Below, in pieces: positions 9,040-49,300 of a stretch of 64,000 nt of DNA. Location: positions 21,002-85,001 of the forward strand of contig JBBSML010000007.1 in NCBI GenBank assembly GCA_038233215.1. The letters run 5' to 3'. The notes below the pieces were generated by a model. The model was not told the DNA's origin and did no database searches. It saw only the letters and a program-made list of their open reading frames with translations. This stretch comes from Candidatus Limnocylindria bacterium (GTDB taxonomy: Bacteria; Chloroflexota; Limnocylindria; QHBO01). How positions within the stretch are numbered: the stretch's first letter is position 1; the number at the start of each line of letters is the position of its first letter. The translations under genes were made by a program, and so were the position numbers.

Positions 9040-12000
9040 TCAGGAGCGGCCCACGGAGAGGCTCAGTACGGCGCCCTCGAGCTCGAGGTTCTCGGTACCG
9101 GTCGCGTGGGGAATCACGGCGTCGGACGCGAGCTCCACCGAGTCCGCCAGCAGTTCATCCGCCAGCCATTCACGATGGGGCAACAGACGCTCGATCGTTC
9201 CCGGGTCAGCTGCAATCGCGACTCGTACTCGGTCGCTGATCTCGTGGCCGGCGGTCTTGCGCATTGCCTGCAGCCGGTGGGCAACCTCACGCGCCAGGCC
9301 CTCGGCGGTGAGCTCATCATCCAGCATGGTGTCGAGCGCCACGAGCAGGTCGCCGTCCTCCGCCACCTCATGTCCCGGGCGCCCTCGCGCGGTGAGCTGA
9401 AATTCATCGGCCCGAAGCGTGACGTCCCCGACGGTTGCGGTGCCGTCATCATTGGCCCGCCAGTTCCCGGAGCGCACACCGTCCATGATCGCGCCGACCG
9501 CCGCGCCGTGCCTGGGGCCGATGACCGGCAACAGCGGGTACAGCGAGCGCTCCACCAGCTCCGATTCATCGGGGATGAGCTCGATCTCGCGAACATTGAG
9601 CTCCTCGCGAATCTGCTGCCGCATGTCGGCATCGAGCTCCGCGCCGCTCCCGAAGCCGTCGATCCCGGCCGGCAGCTTGACCCGGACGGTTCGCAGGGGC
9701 TGTCGCGTCCGTACCGCCGACGCCGAACGCGTCGCCCTCCCGAGCGCAACTGTGCGGCGCGCGAGATCCACCGCGGCGTCCACTGAACCGTCGGCGCGCC
9801 CGGCAACGCGCTGCGGGAAATCGGCCAGATGGACGCTGTCGGGAGCGTCCGGGGTCACCGCCACGACGAGGTTCTCCCAGATGGCGTCCGCGAGATGCGG
9901 CACGAACGGCGCGATCAGGCGCGTGACCGTCGCAAGCACCTCGTGCAGCGTCGCGTACGCCGCTCGCTTGTCGGCATCGAGCTCGCCCTTCCAGAAACGA
10001 CGCCGATTGCGTCGCACGTACCAGTTGGACAGGTCGCCGACGAACGCCTCGATCTCGCGCGCCGCCCGTATCGGCTCATAACCGTCGAGCGACTCCCGTA
10101 CCTCCCCGACGAGTCCGTCGAGGCGCGACAGGATCCACGTGTCGAGCAGCGTGCGCGCCTCGTCGACGCCATCGGTCTGGTCAGGCGTCCAGCCGTCGAG
10201 CCGCGCATAGGTGATGAAGAATCCGTACGTGTTCCAGAGCGGCAGGAAGAAGCGTCGCACCACTTCGTGACCAGGCCCGTACCCGAAGTTGATGTTCGTC
10301 GCGGGGTTCGCCGCCGCGAACATCCAGCGCATGACATCGGCACCGATCTGGTCCGCCGCCTCCTCGAACGCGATCGAGTTGCCCTTCGACTTGTGCATCT
10401 CCTCGCCGTGCTCATCGCGCATGAGCGCGTAGGCAAACAGCGTTCGTGACGGTGCCTGGCCGGTCATCACCGTGCTCATGGTGAGCAGCGCGTAGAACCA
10501 GTTGCGGAACTGGCCGGGAAAGGACTCGGTGACGAGGTCGGCCGGATACCACTTCTTCCAGTAGTCCCGGTCGGAGTTCCACCTCAGCGTCGAAAGCCCC
10601 ACGATGCCGGCGTCGAGCCACGGATTGCCGACGTCCGTCGTCCGACGTGACACCCCGCCGCACGAAGCACAGGCGATCTCGACCCCGTCCACCCATGGGC
10701 GATGCGGTGAATGCCCCTCGAAGGCGTCCCAGCCCGCCACGGCGCGTTCGCGCAGCTCCTCCTTCGAGCCGATCACCTCCCAGCCGTCGCAGTTGCTGCA
10801 CTCCCAGATGGGAAGCGCCAGCCCGTAGTAGCGCTTCTTGCTGATCATCCAATCGTCCATGTTGCGCAGCCAGTCGAGCTCGCGCTCCCCGAGGCCGATC
10901 CCTTCGGGCAGCCAGGTCATGGATCGCGTCGAGGCGCTGATCGGCTCGCGCAGGGGGTCCATCGAGATGAACCACTCATCCACCAGCCGGAAGAGGAGCT
11001 GCGTGCCGCACCGCCAGCAGACCGGGTAGCTGTGCAGGTAGCTCTCCTTCGCCACCAGGACGCCTCTGCGGTCCAGGTCCGCGGCGATGTCGCGGGCGAG
11101 GTCCTGGCTGGCATCCTCGGTCGCGCCCGCATATCGGCCGCTCTGCCATCCGTAGCCAGCCCGGAAGACCCCGAACTGGTCGATGGGGTCGAGGACGGGC
11201 AGGTCGTGGACCTTCGAGAGGGCGAAGTCCTCCTGTCCACATCCGGGGGCGATATGCACGATCCCGGTACCCTCGGCGTCGGACACCTCGTTCCACGGAA
11301 TGACGCGGTGCTCCACGCCGGCCGCGATTGGAAAGTCGTCGAACGGGGCATCGTAGGTCAGGCCGATGAGCTCCTCCCCCCGCACCTCGCTGAGAACCTC
11401 GGCGTCGCGGGCCACGCGGGCGCGGGAGCCGGCGCTCACCCAGCCGCGGCGCCCGTCGATCTCCACCAGCTGATAGACGAGCTCGGGATGCACTGCGGCG
11501 GCAACGTTGCTGGACAGGGTCCACGGCGTGGTCGTCCAGACGAGGAGATCCTCGCCCTGGTGATCCTCACTGGTGAGCGAGAAGCGCACCGTGACCGACA
11601 GGTGGCGCAGGTCGCGGTAGCCCTCGGTCGCGATCTCCATGTTCGACAGCCCGGTCCCGCAGCGCGGGCACCACGGCATGACGTCGTGCCCCTTGCGCAG
11701 CAGGCCACGGCGGTGACATTCAGCCAGGAACGCCCAGATCGTGTAGTTGTTCTCGTCCGAGTTGGTGAAATAGCTGTTGTCCCAGTCCATCCAGTAGCCG
11801 AGCCGCTTACTCTGCTCGGTCTGAATGGCTGCAAACTTCGCAACGCGCGCCTTGCACAGCTCGACGAAGCGATCGATCCCGTACGCCTCAATCCCCTGCT
11901 TGTTGTTGAGCCCCAGCTGCTTCTCCACCTCAACCTCGATCCAGAGGCCCTGGCAGTCGAACCCGTTCTGGTAGCGCTGCTTCTCGCCGAGCATGGTGTG

Positions 12001-12225
12001 GTAGCGCTGGAACAGGTCCTTGTAGGTCCGGCCCCAAGCGTGATGCACGCCCATCGGATTGTTCGCGGTGATCGGCCCGTCGATGAAGCTGAATCGTCGA
12101 TCGGAGCTGTCGTTGCGCGCGAGGTAGCGCGCCATCGTGTCGCGCTCGCGCCAGCGCTCGATGACCTCTCGCTCGAGCGCCGGGACCTCCAGCTCCTTCG
12201 TTACCGGTCTGAACAACCTGCTCAC
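9040..12225 (-). CDS. ileS: Isoleucyl-tRNA synthetase
   Basis: HHAWG (HIGH-like), KSKGNS (KMSKS), editing domain. Likely GTG start at 12225 after an AGGAG SD; the ORF-track N-terminus is translated leader. Confidence 0.85.
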   Translation of the reverse strand: MSRLFRPVTKELEVPALEREVIERWRERDTMARYLARNDSSDRRFSFIDGPITANNPMGVHHAWGRTYKDLFQRYHTMLGEKQRYQNGFDCQGLWIEVEVEKQLGLNNKQGIEAYGIDRFVELCKARVAKFAAIQTEQSKRLGYWMDWDNSYFTNSDENNYTIWAFLAECHRRGLLRKGHDVMPWCPRCGTGLSNMEIATEGYRDLRHLSVTVRFSLTSEDHQGEDLLVWTTTPWTLSSNVAAAVHPELVYQLVEIDGRRGWVSAGSRARVARDAEVLSEVRGEELIGLTYDAPFDDFPIAAGVEHRVIPWNEVSDAEGTGIVHIAPGCGQEDFALSKVHDLPVLDPIDQFGVFRAGYGWQSGRYAGATEDASQDLARDIAADLDRRGVLVAKESYLHSYPVCWRCGTQLLFRLVDEWFISMDPLREPISASTRSMTWLPEGIGLGERELDWLRNMDDWMISKKRYYGLALPIWECSNCDGWEVIGSKEELRERAVAGWDAFEGHSPHRPWVDGVEIACASCGGVSRRTTDVGNPWLDAGIVGLSTLRWNSDRDYWKKWYPADLVTESFPGQFRNWFYALLTMSTVMTGQAPSRTLFAYALMRDEHGEEMHKSKGNSIAFEEAADQIGADVMRWMFAAANPATNINFGYGPGHEVVRRFFLPLWNTYGFFITYARLDGWTPDQTDGVDEARTLLDTWILSRLDGLVGEVRESLDGYEPIRAAREIEAFVGDLSNWYVRRNRRRFWKGELDADKRAAYATLHEVLATVTRLIAPFVPHLADAIWENLVVAVTPDAPDSVHLADFPQRVAGRADGSVDAAVDLARRTVALGRATRSASAVRTRQPLRTVRVKLPAGIDGFGSGAELDADMRQQIREELNVREIELIPDESELVERSLYPLLPVIGPRHGAAVGAIMDGVRSGNWRANDDGTATVGDVTLRADEFQLTARGRPGHEVAEDGDLLVALDTMLDDELTAEGLAREVAHRLQAMRKTAGHEISDRVRVAIAADPGTIERLLPHREWLADELLADSVELASDAVIPHATGTENLELEGAVLSLSVGRS

Positions 12226-12365
12226 CGCTCCTGACAACAACGAACCCGCCCCGGAACTCCGGGACGGGAAGCTCTCCCGCGGTACCACCCGCACGTACCG
12301 ATCCACCACCCGGATCGATCCACCGTTGGTTGCCGATCGTGCCAGCCGACCGCCGGAGTGTCAAT
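12226..12365 (-). promoter_or_regulatory. Candidate T-box leader upstream of ileS
   Basis: Minus-strand RNA contains CGGGUGGUACCGCGGG (T-box consensus AGGGUGGNACCGCG) followed by the hairpin CCCGUCCCGGAGUUCCGGGGCGGG and then the SD AGGAG. Confidence 0.55.
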
Positions 12366-13427
12366 TCAGCCGAGCAGGGCCCGCCCCACGAAGACGGTCG
12401 CCGCCAGGCCACCGGCCACCACCACGGCCACCAGCCGGGGCCACCAGACACGTGCCATGATCGCGCCCACCGTCGTCGCCGGGCCGCCCAGCACGAGCGC
12501 GAGGGCGGTGAGGCGCCCAAGGTCCGTTGCTGGCTGCGGCATCCGGTCCTGAGCGGCGGCGATGCCCCAGACGATCCCAGCGCCGAGTAGCGGCAGGACC
12601 AGGAGCCCGGCGCTGGGGGCCGGCCGTCGCGCCCATGCGGGACGTCGCAGCCCTGGCCGTCGCCCCCGATGCACCCCAACGTGAGGCGGCTCTGCTTCCC
12701 GTTCGGCCGCCTCGGGGGAGAGCTGCGCATCCGTCCGTGCGGCAGCGGCTGCCGCGGCCTCGGCCAACTCCGCGGCCACTCGGCGCTCGAACGTTGCCCG
12801 CTCAATGCCGGTCATGAATTCCGGCGCGACCTCGGACGAGCCGTCCGACTCTCCTGCCCTCTCGTCCGGCGGCGACTCGCGGATGAGCGCCTCCAGCCGC
12901 TGCCGGGCCCGGGCGGCACGCGACAGGGCGTCGAGCAGCGCGTCTTCGTCCGCGGCCGCGATGGCCAGCCGCCCGCGTTCGGTCGGCACGAGGATGGCGG
13001 TCGCAGTCGCCGCCAGGCGCACGACTTCGACAGCCTCTTCGTCACGCAGTCGACCGGCGCCGAGCTGCCACGGCAGGAACGTCGGTGCGGCCCGCAACCG
13101 CGATGCGGTCTCGCCTCGCAGCCGAACACGCGTGACCGGGCCGGGACTGAGCGGATAGATCCGCTCACCGCCCAGCCATGCCAGGCAGACCGCGGCTTCC
13201 TCGATCTCTAGCCTGACGCTGAGCAGGACGACCGCGCCGGCCAGCGACATCAGGAAGACGGTGGCGCCCAGGCCGGCGACGACCAGACCCGTGATGTCGG
13301 GCACCAGCAGCAGCCCGCCCGCCATCATGGCGACGCTCAGCAGCAACCCGAACATCGGTAGCGCCAACAGGCGCGGGAGCGAGCGAGAGAGTCGGATGCG
13401 GGCGATCGGCGGGACGCGGTTCGACAT
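12366..13427 (-). CDS. Membrane protein with a bacterial PH-like (bPH_2/YdbT-like) domain; function unknown
   Basis: Two N-terminal TM helices, a central soluble Ala/Glu-rich region, and C-terminal TM helices; likely start MSNRVPP. Confidence 0.45.
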   Translation of the reverse strand: MSNRVPPIARIRLSRSLPRLLALPMFGLLLSVAMMAGGLLLVPDITGLVVAGLGATVFLMSLAGAVVLLSVRLEIEEAAVCLAWLGGERIYPLSPGPVTRVRLRGETASRLRAAPTFLPWQLGAGRLRDEEAVEVVRLAATATAILVPTERGRLAIAAADEDALLDALSRAARARQRLEALIRESPPDERAGESDGSSEVAPEFMTGIERATFERRVAAELAEAAAAAAARTDAQLSPEAAEREAEPPHVGVHRGRRPGLRRPAWARRPAPSAGLLVLPLLGAGIVWGIAAAQDRMPQPATDLGRLTALALVLGGPATTVGAIMARVWWPRLVAVVVAGGLAATVFVGRALLG

Positions 13428-13432
13428 CGGCC

Positions 13433-15097
13433 TCAGACCTTCTCGGTGACCTTGTACTCCAGGTAGCGCCCGGTCAGCAGGCGAGTCTGGGCATCCAGCG
13501 CCGGCACCATGCTGAATATGATCCCGACGAACGGCAGCCCGATCCATTGCACGTAGCTGATCGCTCGTTGCAGCCAGCCCCACTCGGCTGGTCGTGGCGG
13601 GACGATCCGATGCTCGACCACGATCAGCACCGCGAGACTCACGATCGCCGTGGTGAGCATGGCACTCGCGTAGAGCGGCAGGTTCTGGCCGAGCGTCGTC
13701 TCGCCGAAGGCCGGGTTGATCAGCAGCGGAACGGTCGCGCCAAACGTCAGCACGAACGGCGTGATCGCCCAGTTGATGTGCTCACTGAACAGGTTGAGAA
13801 CGCGCCAGGAGCGTGACGTCCACGGAATTTCAGCATGCCTGACCGCGTTGTCGATCACGAATGGGATATCGGTGACGCCCCATGCCCAGCGCCGCGCCTG
13901 AAGGTATTGCTCCGCCATGCTGCGCCAGTATCCGCGGGCACGAACCGCATCCCCGTAGATCGGGATGAAGAGCGGAACGGCCCGGAATCGGTCGCCGTAC
14001 CGGAAGTAGCTCTTCCAGTAGAAGCGGCTGTCCTCCGGAATGGCATCCGTTGCCCAGTAGCCGACGTCGTGGACCAGGTGCAGTGTCGTGGAGTACGACC
14101 CGAAGCTCTGGAGCTTCTCCGGCAGGACGCTGCGCCACATCTGGAGCTGCGTCAGCACTGCCGCAAAGAGGCGCTGGAGCATCGGCGCCTCCCAGATGTT
14201 GTTGTGGAAGTACGGGATCGGCTGATAGAGCTGGGTCTCTCGATTTGGATCCGTCAGATGGACCCAGCTCAGGTAGGCGAAGTACTGCGGATGGACCCGG
14301 TAATCGGCATCGAGGTCGGTGAGGATGATCCGATGCGGATCCATGCCCCGCTCGCGCACCAGCATCCGATAGAGGTAGCGCCCGCCCCATGCCATGGCGC
14401 TGCTCTTGCCGACCACGATCCCCGGCTCGAGCGGATCGAGGATGTGGATGAACTCGGCGAACGCGTCGCCGAACTCATCCTGGAGGGTCCGGACACTGGC
14501 GATCCCGCCTTCGTCGGTCTCCCTGGTGATGATCGCGCAGATCTTGCGCTCAGAGGGCCAGTGCGCCTCGGCCAGAGCGCGGACCGTCAGGCGCAGCTTC
14601 TCCAACGACTCGGTGTAGGTCGGAATGAGCGCCAAATGGACCAGGTCGTTGGCGGATGGCGGCGGTGTAGGCAGGGATTCGACCGTTCGCAGCTCGTCGA
14701 GCTCACGCCGAAGGCGGCGGCGCTGGGCACCGCTGGGCTGCGCCATGGCATTCACACCGAGCGCCCCGCGTGGAGCGTCAGATCCGACCGCGACGAGCCG
14801 GGCCTCGAGTGCCGCTCGTCGTGAAGCTGTGTCCTCCAAACCGGTGAGTCGCTCAACCCAGTCGATGGCGGCCACGTCACGTATGCGGCCGAACGCGACG
14901 ATCACCGCACCGCTGAACCAGAGCGCCCGGCACAACCAGTAGAAGTCGAAACTGAGGACGAAGTACGCGACCAGCCACGGGTAGCTGAAGCTCAGCCAGA
15001 GCGGAAGGATCAGGATGGCCCACGAGATGGTGCCGGGGACCATTTCGAGCAATCGTCCGAGCCAGCGCAGGCGTTCGGGATCGGGGGTGGTGGTCAT
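13433..15097 (-). CDS. Processive family-2 glycosyltransferase (cellulose/chitin-synthase-like), integral membrane
   Basis: TDLDAD (DxD) and QARRWAWG (QxxRW) motifs between N- and C-terminal TM helix bundles. Confidence 0.55.
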   Translation of the reverse strand: MTTTPDPERLRWLGRLLEMVPGTISWAILILPLWLSFSYPWLVAYFVLSFDFYWLCRALWFSGAVIVAFGRIRDVAAIDWVERLTGLEDTASRRAALEARLVAVGSDAPRGALGVNAMAQPSGAQRRRLRRELDELRTVESLPTPPPSANDLVHLALIPTYTESLEKLRLTVRALAEAHWPSERKICAIITRETDEGGIASVRTLQDEFGDAFAEFIHILDPLEPGIVVGKSSAMAWGGRYLYRMLVRERGMDPHRIILTDLDADYRVHPQYFAYLSWVHLTDPNRETQLYQPIPYFHNNIWEAPMLQRLFAAVLTQLQMWRSVLPEKLQSFGSYSTTLHLVHDVGYWATDAIPEDSRFYWKSYFRYGDRFRAVPLFIPIYGDAVRARGYWRSMAEQYLQARRWAWGVTDIPFVIDNAVRHAEIPWTSRSWRVLNLFSEHINWAITPFVLTFGATVPLLINPAFGETTLGQNLPLYASAMLTTAIVSLAVLIVVEHRIVPPRPAEWGWLQRAISYVQWIGLPFVGIIFSMVPALDAQTRLLTGRYLEYKVTEKV

Positions 15098-20572: not shown

Positions 20573-20656
20573 TGGTGCCGGAGGAGGGACTCGAACCCCC
20601 ACGCCTTGCGGCCGCCGGGTTTAAGCCGGCTGCGTCTGCCATTCCGCCACTCCGGC
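20573..20656 (-). tRNA. tRNA-Leu (anticodon UAA)
   Basis: Cloverleaf read manually: GCCGGAG..anticodon loop CTTAAAC..long variable arm..GGGTTCGAGTCCC..ACCA. Confidence 0.85.
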
Positions 20657-32795: not shown

Positions 32796-32870
32796 TGGAG
32801 GCGACGACGGGAATCGAACCCGTGTACGCGGTTTTGCAGACCGCTCCCTAAACCACTCGGGCACGTCGCC
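32796..32870 (-). tRNA. tRNA-Cys (GCA); its 3' 44 nt form attR
   Basis: GGCGACG..anticodon loop CTGCAAA..GGGTTCGATTCCCGTCGTCGCCTCCA. Confidence 0.85.
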
Positions 32871-32882
32871 ACGCGCTCATTC

Positions 32883-32956
32883 TGGCTGCCCCGCGAGGAT
32901 TCGAACCTCGGTTCACGGATCCAAAGTCCGCTGTCCTACCGCTAGACGACGGGGCA
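32883..32956 (-). tRNA. tRNA-Gln (UUG)
   Basis: UGCCCCG...anticodon loop CTTTGGA...GAGGTTCGAATCCTCGCGGGGCAGCCA. Confidence 0.75.
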
Positions 32957-33010
32957 ACGCCTCGTCACGCTAGCAGGTCGACAGCGACGGTACCTAGCCG
33001 GACGTGAAAA

Positions 33011-33085
33011 TGGAGCGGAAGACGGGATTCGAACCCGCGACCCTCACCTTGGCAAGGTGATGCTCTACCACTGAGCCACTTCCGC
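33011..33085 (-). tRNA. tRNA-Gly (GCC)
   Basis: GCGGAAGTGGCTCAGTGGTAGAGC..anticodon loop TTGCCAA..GGGTTCGAATCCCGTCTTCCGCTCCA. Confidence 0.85.
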
Positions 33086-33115
33086 CCGCTTGTTGGCCCG
33101 ATGATACCGCGTTGC

Positions 33116-33191
33116 TGGTGCCGAGGGTCAGAATCGAACTGACGACACCCGCCTCTTCAGGGCGGTGCTCTACCGACTGAGCTACCTCGGC
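33116..33191 (-). tRNA. tRNA-Phe (GAA)
   Basis: GCCGAGGTAGCTCAGTCGGTAGAGC..anticodon loop CTGAAGA..GTTCGATTCTGACCCTCGGCACCA. Confidence 0.85.
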
Positions 33192-35777: not shown

Positions 35778-35854
35778 TGGTGGGCGGTGAGGGACTCGAA
35801 CCCCCGACCCCCTCGGTGTAAACGAGGTGCTCTGACCAGCTGAGCTAACCGCCC
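35778..35854 (-). tRNA. tRNA-Val (UAC)
   Basis: GGGCGGTTAGCTCAGCTGGTCAGAGC..anticodon loop TTTACAC..GGTTCGAGTCCCTCACCGCCCACCA. Confidence 0.85.
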
Positions 35855-35919
35855 GTATCGGTTTCGAGCGTATCACTGTCTTCGTGCGCGGGAGGCGTGA
35901 TCTACGTGGCGGGCAGGAG

Positions 35920-36140
35920 CAAACGCCCAATGAAGCGTGGTCCGCCCCGTAGGGCGAGGCTAACGATCAATGAAGCGTGGTCTCTTGTGCCATTTACCGG
36001 TCCGACGGGTCATCTTGCCGACAGGCGCGCGGTTCTGCCTCGTCCGATGGCCGATAGCTCCGCACCACGGGTCCCGCGCTCGCGATCCACGAGGGCTCAC
36101 TCGTTCAATGGCGGATAGTCCCGCACCACGGGTCGCGCGT
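35920..36140. repeat. Intergenic repeat block: caatgaagcgtggtc x2 flanking the hairpin CGCCCCGTAGGGCG, and two ~27-bp imperfect repeats atggc(c/g)gatag(c/t)(t/c)ccgcaccacgggtc
   Basis: Read directly between tRNA-Val and tRNA-Leu; no convincing ORF. Confidence 0.6.
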
Positions 36141-36207
36141 CGCTGGGAGAAACGAAGAGCGCCGCTCGCAGCGGCGCAAGCGGCGCATCGGTCTGAAAAG
36201 AAGGAAT

Positions 36208-36293
36208 TGGTGCCCAGGCCGGGACTTGAACCCGGATGAGTTGCCTCATACGCCCCTCAAACGTACGCGTATACCAATTCCGCCACCTGGGCC
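36208..36293 (-). tRNA. tRNA-Leu (GAG)
   Basis: Class II tRNA with a long variable arm; anticodon loop TTGAGGG. Confidence 0.7.
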
Positions 36294-36299
36294 CGAGCG

Positions 36300-36386
36300 T
36301 GGTACCGAGGGAGGGACTTGAACCCACACGACCTTGCGGCCACTAGGTCCTGAACCTAGCGCGTCTGCCTATTCCGCCACCTCGGC
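36300..36386 (-). tRNA. tRNA-Leu (CAG)
   Basis: GCCGAGGTGGCGGAATAGGCAGACGC..anticodon loop TTCAGGA..long variable arm..GGGTTCAAGTCCC. Confidence 0.8.
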
Positions 36387-47860: not shown

Positions 47861-49255
47861 TCAGCGCTCCACGTGGTACAGCTCGAGGCGGCGGCCCCAG
47901 CTCGTTCGGGTCACGAAGCGGAGCAGCGTGCGCGTCACCGTGACGGCGCTGAACATGCTGACCAGCACACCAACGATGAGCACGAGCGCAAAGCCCTTGA
48001 CGACGGTCGTGCCCTGCCAGTAGAGCCAGCCGGCGACGAGGATGGATGCCACATTCGAGTCGAGGATGCTCGACCAGGCGCGGTTGAAGCCTGCCTCGAT
48101 GGCCGGTCCGAGGGTCTTACCGGCTCGGATCTCCTCTTTCATGCGCTCGAAGATGAGGATGTTGGCGTCGACGGCCATACCGATGCTGAGTATGAAGGCG
48201 GCAACGCCGGCGAGCGTCAGCGTCACGCCGATGAGGCGGAAGATGGCGTAAATGACGAGCGTATAGAAGACGAGCGCAAAGGCGGCAAGCAGTCCGGGCA
48301 GCCGGTAGTAGGCGACCATGAAGAGCATCACCAGCAAGAGGCCGACGCCACCCGCGATCAGGGCCTGGACGAGGAAGTTCGCGCCGAGCGTCGGATCAAC
48401 GTCGTCGAAGCCGATCTCGTTGAGCGAGACAGGCAGGGCGCCGAAGCGGAGCGTGTTGAACAGGCTGGTCCGCTCGATCTCGTTCTCGGGTGTCGCGGTC
48501 CCGACCGTGATGATCGTCGTACCGCCGCAGATGGCGGTGTTGATGTCCGGCGTGGTGATCACCCGGCCATCGAGCGCGATCGGTCCAGGGCGACCAACGT
48601 TGGCGGTCGTGAACTGGCACCACGTGTCACTGCCGGCATCGGAGAGGCTGAACGAGACGCCGATCTGATTGCCTGAGCCGACATCCGGAGCCACGCTGCC
48701 CTGAACGATCTCGCCTCCATTGAAGAGCTCAGCGACGACGCCCTGCTCGAGCAGCGGACCGATGTCCTGGTCACGGGCCAGCTGTTGACCCATCGGGTCG
48801 ATGAACTGGAGCTGTCCGGTGGACCCGACCAGGTCGCGTACCTGGGCCGGATCGTTGACGCCGGGCACTTCGACCACGATTCGTCGCGAGCCATCGCCGG
48901 CAGTCTCGGTGCGCACCTGGGGCTCGCTGACGCCGATGCCCGCCACGCGGCGCTCGATGGTATCGCGCGCGACCTCGACGTCCGCATCGGTGATCTCGGT
49001 ATCCGCCTGCGGCTCGACCTCCAAGGTGACGCGCAAGCCCCCCTGAAGGTCCAAACCCAACACGGTACGGAACTCGACCCCCGCGACCTCGTCGGGCAGC
49101 CAGGAGAGGCCGAGCGTCGTGCGCGGCAGGTCGATGAAGATCGCCACGAGGGCGACCACCCCGATGAACCACGGGGCGATGCGACGCCAGGTCATATGTC
49201 GGTCGTTGCGTCCTCGGTCATGTGGAATCTCGTGTCGGCCCGGTATGCCGGACAC
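47861..49255 (-). CDS. secD: Protein translocase subunit SecD
   Basis: SecD periplasmic domain and C-terminal six-TM bundle; the true start is possibly the internal MTWRRIAPW (~49195). Confidence 0.8.
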   Translation of the reverse strand: MSGIPGRHEIPHDRGRNDRHMTWRRIAPWFIGVVALVAIFIDLPRTTLGLSWLPDEVAGVEFRTVLGLDLQGGLRVTLEVEPQADTEITDADVEVARDTIERRVAGIGVSEPQVRTETAGDGSRRIVVEVPGVNDPAQVRDLVGSTGQLQFIDPMGQQLARDQDIGPLLEQGVVAELFNGGEIVQGSVAPDVGSGNQIGVSFSLSDAGSDTWCQFTTANVGRPGPIALDGRVITTPDINTAICGGTTIITVGTATPENEIERTSLFNTLRFGALPVSLNEIGFDDVDPTLGANFLVQALIAGGVGLLLVMLFMVAYYRLPGLLAAFALVFYTLVIYAIFRLIGVTLTLAGVAAFILSIGMAVDANILIFERMKEEIRAGKTLGPAIEAGFNRAWSSILDSNVASILVAGWLYWQGTTVVKGFALVLIVGVLVSMFSAVTVTRTLLRFVTRTSWGRRLELYHVER

Positions 49256-49300
49256 GAAACGCGCCGCTTCACCAGCGGCGGGCGACGATGAGTATAGCTG

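Follow-up and report, generated by a model that had tools for sequence, protein, structure and literature searches.

A probable T-box remnant without its decoding module in the ileS leader of a Candidatus Limnocylindria genome

T-boxes are taught as obligatorily bipartite elements, in which a decoding Stem I is joined to a discriminator, and they are regarded both as essential controls on synthetase genes and as targets for antibiotics. The canonical transcriptional form (RF00230), of which Bacillus subtilis tyrS and ileS are examples, carries a Stem I with K-turn, specifier loop and elbow platform, a Stem II and a IIA/B element, besides Stem III and an antiterminator that competes with a terminator. 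Binding of tRNA proceeds in two steps, the pairing of anticodon and specifier coming first and promoting the folding of the discriminator (PMC12647780), and Stem I has been described as obligate (PMC7583486). The translational ileS T-boxes of Actinobacteria (Mycobacterium tuberculosis, Nocardia farcinica) are described as having an ultrashort Stem I with AUC, a Stem II S-turn, IIA/B and a helix that sequesters the Shine-Dalgarno sequence (Sherwood et al. 2015, as cited in PMC7583486). A discriminator comprising Stem III and the antiterminator has also been isolated by engineering and co-crystallized with tRNA (PDB 6PMO; Li et al. 2019, likewise as cited in PMC7583486). No description of a T-box that naturally lacks Stem I was found in the literature searched, although this absence is no proof of novelty.

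The window considered here, that is, the whole 64-kb stretch of DNA that was analysed, contains an ileS leader on its minus strand that resembles each of these systems in part. With the canonical transcriptional T-box, and with the full-length ileS leaders of four relatives (L001, L162, L163 and L165), it shares an exact T-box sequence, the UGGU bulge, helices A1 and A2 with a G.U pair, Stem III, an overlapping GC-rich terminator with a U-rich tail, and a position between a promoter and a synthetase gene. It differs from them in being without K-turn, Stem I, specifier loop, elbow platform, Stem II and IIA/B, in the altered purine string around Stem III, and in having no RF00230 score. Shortness, association with ileS and the discriminator core recall the actinobacterial class, but the decoding elements are missing, the helix is terminator-like and stands off the Shine-Dalgarno sequence, and the host belongs to the Chloroflexota. 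Finally, the leader is like the engineered discriminator in having Stem III, the T-box bulge and A1/A2 without Stem I; unlike that construct it is natural, lies in cis to a terminator and a gene, and has AC in place of AA and the first purine of the flanking string lost. The leader was interpreted as a T-box remnant from which the decoding module has been deleted and which no longer recognises tRNA-Ile (probability about 0.7). Judged by its sequence, it belongs to the T-box lineage by descent while failing the defining features of a working T-box. The features on which this reading rests are as follows, in the order of transcription.

12366..13583, minus strand: upstream open reading frame of 405 aa, membrane-like, with a hydrophobic C-terminus; TGA stop at 12368-12366
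12336..12364, minus strand: promoter, with -35 TTGACA (12364-12359), a 17-nt spacer and extended -10 TGgCACGAT (12344-12336)
12324..12325, minus strand: deletion junction between CAAC and GG, 183 nt missing relative to L001
12297..12319, minus strand: Stem III remnant, AUCGAUCCG / UGGAUCGGU, 9 bp, loop GGUGG, followed by a linker ACGUGC before helix A1
12261..12290, minus strand: antiterminator, GGG-UGGUACC-GCGGGA...UCCCGU-CCC
12290-12288 with 12263-12261, minus strand: helix A1, GGG paired with CCC
12287-12281, minus strand: T-box bulge UGGUACC, 7 nt, intact
12280-12275 with 12269-12264, minus strand: helix A2, GCGGGA paired with UCCCGU, G.U base pair kept
12245..12268, minus strand: terminator-type hairpin, CCCGUCCCGG-AGUU-CCGGGGCGGG, 10 bp, -21.2 kcal/mol
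12234..12244, minus strand: U-rich tail, UUCGUUGUUGU (UUUGUUGUUGU in the nearest full-length relatives)
12228..12232, minus strand: Shine-Dalgarno sequence AGGAG, outside the hairpin
12214..12225, minus strand: candidate ileS starts, GTG 12225-12223 (that of the earlier note) and TTG 12216-12214 (the clade-conserved position)
9040..12216, minus strand: ileS coding sequence, 1058 aa from TTG, intact, 96-97% identical to the IleS of relatives

The host lineage was identified as Chloroflexota, Candidatus Limnocylindria, from the nearest IleS proteins and leaders, which belong to metagenome-assembled genomes, at 96-98% amino acid identity. Window IleS was 98% identical to that of L001 across the N-terminal 214 aa and 96-97% identical to three other proteins (P0001-P0003) over the full length, and it matched TIGR00392 with 678.8 bits against a cut-off of 621.4. 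Downstream (3') of ileS lie lspA and rluD. On the other side, the end of the upstream open reading frame is the same one that precedes the promoter in relatives; this frame is conserved there, and matched no Pfam or NCBIfam family. Exact-protein look-ups with window IleS (three start choices) and with the upstream frame returned no identical record. A 554-aa frame that overlaps the upstream one (13433-15097, minus) had no family match either. Eight tRNA genes occur in the window, comprising a Cys-Gln-Gly-Phe cluster, Val with two Leu, and a lone Leu(taa) (32796-33191, 35778-36386 and 20573-20656 (minus)). No tRNA-Ile gene is among these eight. Elsewhere, positions 49210-49285 (minus) weakly resembled the gyrA RNA motif of Rfam (RF01740, 22.8 bits against a cut-off of 45, E 0.4).

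At the 5' end of the transcript, ATTGACA was invariant and CTGC[CG]AC[GC]ATC nearly invariant among 17 aligned leaders. Transcription would start near 12331-12329, as estimated from promoter spacing, leaving about 6 nt of transcript 5' of Stem III. The earlier note had put the leader at about 140 nt; since the interval 12226-12365 also includes the promoter, this was an overestimate, and the transcribed leader is only about 105-115 nt. At the other end, the AGGAG at 12232-12228 and the in-frame GTG at 12225 proposed in that note were both confirmed, the GTG being in frame with the longest open reading frame, which opens at GTG 12309. The position equivalent to GTG 12225 is ATG in L001, L162 and L163, while L007 lacks a start codon at this site. 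Across the clade, the start position corresponds to TTG 12216 (M-F-K/R-P-V), and L006 has ATG at this point. The spacing from AGGAG is 2 nt for GTG 12225 and 11 nt for TTG 12216; at the clade-wide start, spacings are 5-11 nt. Under either start the region 12226-12309 is non-protein, which bears out the suggestion that the N-terminus of the longest IleS frame is in fact leader. The same error of gene calling recurs in a relative, L161, whose IleS is annotated as 1084 aa; gene callers run IleS on into the leader.

The T-box motif itself was verified as an exact match, CGGGUGGUACCGCGGG at 12291-12276 on the minus strand. Its 15-mer GGGTGGTACCGCGGG (12290-12276) had one exact occurrence in the window, and shuffled sequences averaged 0.32 matches even when two mismatches were tolerated. 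The sole other 15-mer match in the window, at 36297-36311 (plus) with two mismatches, was rejected as a second T-box, being complementary to the acceptor 3' end of tRNA-Leu(cag) (36300-36386(-)). Between A1 and A2 the 7-nt UGGN-ACC bulge characteristic of T-boxes was present, as was the G.U pair at the base of A2, which the literature regards as a steric sensor. The surroundings of Stem III were less well preserved. The purine string described around this stem reads 5'-RRRxG ... AA-3' (PMC7583486). Its 5' side is CGGUG and its 3' side AC in the window, against GAGUG-like sequences and AA in the full-length relatives. Replacement of the first purine of RRRxG occurred at the deletion junction, and L161 shares with the window the AC of the 3' flank, in place of which every full-length relative has CAAG. 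Three AUC triplets occur in the window leader, all inside the Stem III helix (P(unpaired) <=0.04), and a specifier within the remnant was therefore rejected; the AUC/GAU specifier loop for which the earlier note had suggested looking is not there.

The GC-rich hairpin reported in that note just before the start was also present (12268-12245, minus, 10 bp). It was flagged by a simple terminator scan, and its U-tail passed a simple terminator consensus. Because the 5' arm of this hairpin overlaps the 3' strands of A2 and A1, hairpin and antiterminator are mutually exclusive, and the hairpin is the more stable of the two, as is usual for a T-box terminator with its U-rich tail. The terminator conformer folded with -56.3 kcal/mol and the enforced antiterminator with -45.2 kcal/mol; the former was thus favoured by about 11 kcal/mol, like ordinary T-boxes without tRNA. 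The 3' end of the hairpin (12245) lies 12 nt upstream of the Shine-Dalgarno sequence, which had a mean P(unpaired) of 0.58 in the ensemble. Ending 12 nt short of AGGAG and followed by a U-rich tail, the hairpin was classed as terminator-type and not as a sequestrator. Sequestration of the Shine-Dalgarno sequence was rejected, since the hairpin does not include it and the sole nearby pairing, ACCGC/GCGGU, was not conserved in L001. Of the alternative structures that the earlier note had envisaged, a mutually exclusive pair does exist, but it consists of antiterminator and terminator, and contains no sequestrator of the ribosome binding site.

Comparison with close relatives, whose ileS is 93-96% identical to that of the window at the nucleotide level, accounted for the shortness of the leader. 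The window and L001 have a common 5' part, comprising the end of the upstream frame, the promoter and the transcript start GGCAA[C/T]CAAC, and beyond a gap of 183 nt they again share Stem III, T-box, terminator hairpin, Shine-Dalgarno sequence and start; the retained part of the leader is 95-100% identical to L001. Full-length leaders were also found in L162, L163 and L165. The 183 nt lost relative to L001 contain Stem I with K-turn and AUC specifier, Stem II, and the IIA/B pseudoknot, and the leader is short because the deletion removed these elements. In the relatives, the K-turn and Stem I read GGCAAUGACGGAG...AGCGAGCCCG..GUGG..CGGGC...CAUCUCUCCCGAGCC, and the AUC specifier precedes a conserved CUCCCGAGCC in all full-length leaders; none of this remains in the window, where no Stem I with AUC specifier could be recognised. 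Nor does the window contain the K-turn and distal platform for the tRNA elbow (GGCGAUGACGGAG...AGCGAGCC...GGUG...CUCCCGAGCC in relatives), or Stem II and the IIA/B pseudoknot with its F-box (CCCGGG..GCCACCCGAUA in relatives). A decoding-module profile built from 19 relatives found nothing in the 64-kb window (best E 0.29), while a discriminator-module profile matched 12322-12226 with E=4e-18.

Some variation in length was also seen among relatives. Seven leaders (L009, L011, L013, L016, L082, L083 and L084) carry an extra hairpin-like insert of about 40 nt, GCCAUCGGUC...GUGG, between Stem IIA/B and Stem III, and the Stem II loop of L001 (1340-1375) differs by 14 nt in length from those of L162 and L163, through a short tandem repeat of GUGCGUCGUGC type. 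A metagenome scan added four more full-length Limnocylindria leaders and nothing else; no relative closer than 80% was obtained from it.

The identical deletion junction was present in L161 (ENA assembly ERZ27252444). This sequence was 98.7% identical to the window over the first 630 nt of ileS and diverged by 2.55% over the whole gene; with 81 of 3177 ileS positions and three leader positions, all in Stem III, being different, it was regarded as a separate genome of the same deletion lineage. The occurrence of one junction in two independent assemblies indicated that the deletion is real. Microhomology at the deletion junctions amounted to at most 2-4 nt, and so no clear mechanism of deletion was apparent.

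Three further leaders were truncated at other boundaries. In L164 (107-230), 209 nt are missing between the 5' strand of Stem I and the T-box bulge, and UGGUA has been lost with them; in L005 (1381-1500), a deletion of 217 nt extends from Stem I as far as the 5' strand of helix A2, leaving no T-box bulge; L017 (1335-1500) has lost 153 nt covering Stems I-II and, in addition, has UGGU changed to UGAU in the bulge. Promoter, GC hairpin and Shine-Dalgarno sequence were kept in all three. By comparison of these sequences, the ileS T-box was truncated independently at least four times in a sample of about 25 distinct leaders. The first three bases of the tail contained fewer U in the truncated leader than in the nearest full-length leader in all four comparisons (UUC/UUU, CUU/UUU, AUG/UUU and AAU/AUU). 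A compensatory weakening of the U tract after truncation is only suggestive, however, because full-length leaders themselves vary widely, from UUUUUUCA to UCUCGUGU.

Searches with RF00230 placed these leaders in a wider context. The gathering cut-off of this family is 93 bits, and the Rfam scan proposed in the earlier note returned no match for the window at that value; neither was there a match at E<=10 on 12150-12450 or 12100-12750, nor at E<=1 on the whole window. All of the truncated leaders (window, L161, L164, L005 and L017) went unmatched. End-to-end alignments were obtained for L001 (42.9 bits, E 3.8e-6) and for L162, L163 and L165 (42-47 bits, E 4e-6 to 2e-7), and the sequences aligned in this way also included L002, L004, L007, L010, L012, L014, L018 and L019. 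Several Thermomicrobiales aligned end to end as well; the whole aligned set scored 27-68 bits, with E down to 1e-12, and L034, L044 and L047 passed the gathering score. These alignments imply that, in this part of the Chloroflexota, a T-box at ileS is the ancestral state. The full-length Limnocylindria ileS T-boxes, with leaders of about 300 nt, reached only 27-47 bits, and those seen here are therefore missed by standard Rfam annotation. Their specifier loops are without the usual AGUA/GAA flanks (e.g., ...CGUCAUCUCUCC). In a crude motif survey for further remnants, the Stem I regular expression was unreliable outside Limnocylindria.

The divergence between the window and L161 gave an indication of which parts of the remnant are still constrained. 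At four-fold degenerate sites of ileS, 6.5% had diverged. Stem III, which is identical among the full-length L001, L162 and L163, showed three differences in 33 nt, about the neutral rate, while the 76-nt stretch from T-box motif to start codon showed none, where about 4.9 were expected (Poisson P about 0.007). Accordingly, the antiterminator, terminator hairpin, tail and Shine-Dalgarno sequence remain under constraint, and Stem III does not. With two sequences, constraint on the hairpin and Shine-Dalgarno sequence is inseparable from constraint on the T-box bulge, but L164 and L005 keep a perfect hairpin without a bulge, which points to the hairpin itself.

From these observations the history of the leader may be reconstructed as follows. 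The ancestor would have been a transcription-attenuating T-box specific for tRNA-Ile, arranged in the order promoter, Stem I with AUC, Stem II, IIA/B, Stem III, antiterminator/terminator, Shine-Dalgarno sequence and ileS. In full-length relatives a U-rich tail comes after the helix, with the Shine-Dalgarno sequence another 10-40 nt on, and from this anatomy we infer that the ancestral mode was attenuation of transcription and involved no sequestration. The 183-nt deletion, beginning about 6 nt past the transcription start, brought Stem III and the antiterminator/terminator right up to the promoter. Without capture of the anticodon, the antiterminator could presumably not be stabilised, and since the terminator fold is the more stable by about 11 kcal/mol, the GC hairpin would form by default. 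The leader would then act as a tRNA-independent, partly leaky attenuator, or as a 5'-UTR hairpin; ileS would owe its expression to constitutive read-through, driven by a strong, conserved promoter, and isoleucine-specific feedback would be lost. The awkward point in this account is that it places an unconditional terminator before an intact and apparently essential ileS, the expression of which must rest on read-through.

A second possibility is that the remnant still senses tRNA, in that Stem III and the antiterminator capture the free 3'-NCCA of uncharged tRNAs without the anticodon being read; UGGU would pair with A73-CCA, and read-through would track uncharging in general and not that of tRNA-Ile specifically. 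The discriminator, made up of Stem III, its flanking purines and the antiterminator, has been described as necessary and sufficient for sensing aminoacylation (PMC7583486), and the window retains an intact T-box bulge, helices A1/A2, the G.U pair and a Stem III of 9 bp. The lack of any difference over 76 nt between the window and L161, in spite of 6.5% four-fold divergence, may likewise be read in favour of residual sensing of the tRNA 3' end, but it would fit a retained function of hairpin and Shine-Dalgarno sequence, and these alone can explain it. Moreover, the purine string has been altered on both sides in the window and L161 (RRRxG to CGGUG, and AA to AC), Stem III evolves at about the neutral rate, and it is the binding of the anticodon that comes first and promotes discriminator folding (PMC12647780). 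The bulge itself has been deleted or mutated in L164, L005 and L017 (UGAU in the last), so that the clade tolerates complete loss of tRNA sensing. Residual sensing was consequently considered unlikely. A bolder extension, that a natural specifier-less T-box serves ileS as a general sensor of tRNA charging through A73-CCA, and that Limnocylindria may repeatedly strip T-boxes down to a hairpin functional in its own right, was held to be more doubtful still.

The earlier note had favoured a compact T-box of actinobacterial type that acts by sequestration of the Shine-Dalgarno sequence; in such a functional, translational element, charged tRNA-Ile would favour the sequestrator that hides this sequence. 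An exact T-box motif with mutually exclusive helices upstream of ileS agrees with this model, as does the shortening of Stem I in actinobacterial ileS T-boxes (PMC7583486). Yet nothing that distinguishes that class was found, whether an ultrashort Stem I, Stem II S-turn or IIA/B, a Shine-Dalgarno sequence within a sequestrator, or an actinobacterial host: only some 6 nt precede Stem III, and every AUC is paired within that stem; the hairpin stops 12 nt before AGGAG and bears a U-rich tail; the ACCGC/GCGGU pairing near the Shine-Dalgarno sequence, which appears in the minimum-energy fold, is not conserved in L001; Rfam gives no match; and relatives in the Chloroflexota carry long leaders with canonical Stem I. 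This model was judged very improbable. What survives of the original proposal is descent from a T-box, a genuine ileS and the leader nature of the N-terminus of the open reading frame; the decoding module and specifier are gone, the shortness of the leader reflects the 183-nt deletion, and the actinobacterial parallel fails with the assignment of the organism to Limnocylindria. It is similarly hard to credit that the deletion is an assembly artefact or a minority variant in the population, the organism itself having the full-length T-box. In favour of this, the DNA probably comes from a metagenome-assembled genome, and the species-level relative L001 is full-length, but the same junction occurs in the distinct genome L161 (ERZ27252444), there is no repeat at the junction long enough to collapse an assembly graph, and three other assemblies contain different internal truncations.

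Loss of the decoding module thus remains the preferred reading, and it has implications beyond the single locus. It would mean that finding a perfect T-box motif is no guarantee of a T-box that works. Within a single class of Chloroflexota, the ileS T-box was deprived of its decoding half at least four separate times, and gene, promoter and terminator hairpin survived. Such leaders are natural deletion mutants, which may show how much basal read-through an essential synthetase needs, and what role the hairpin has of its own.
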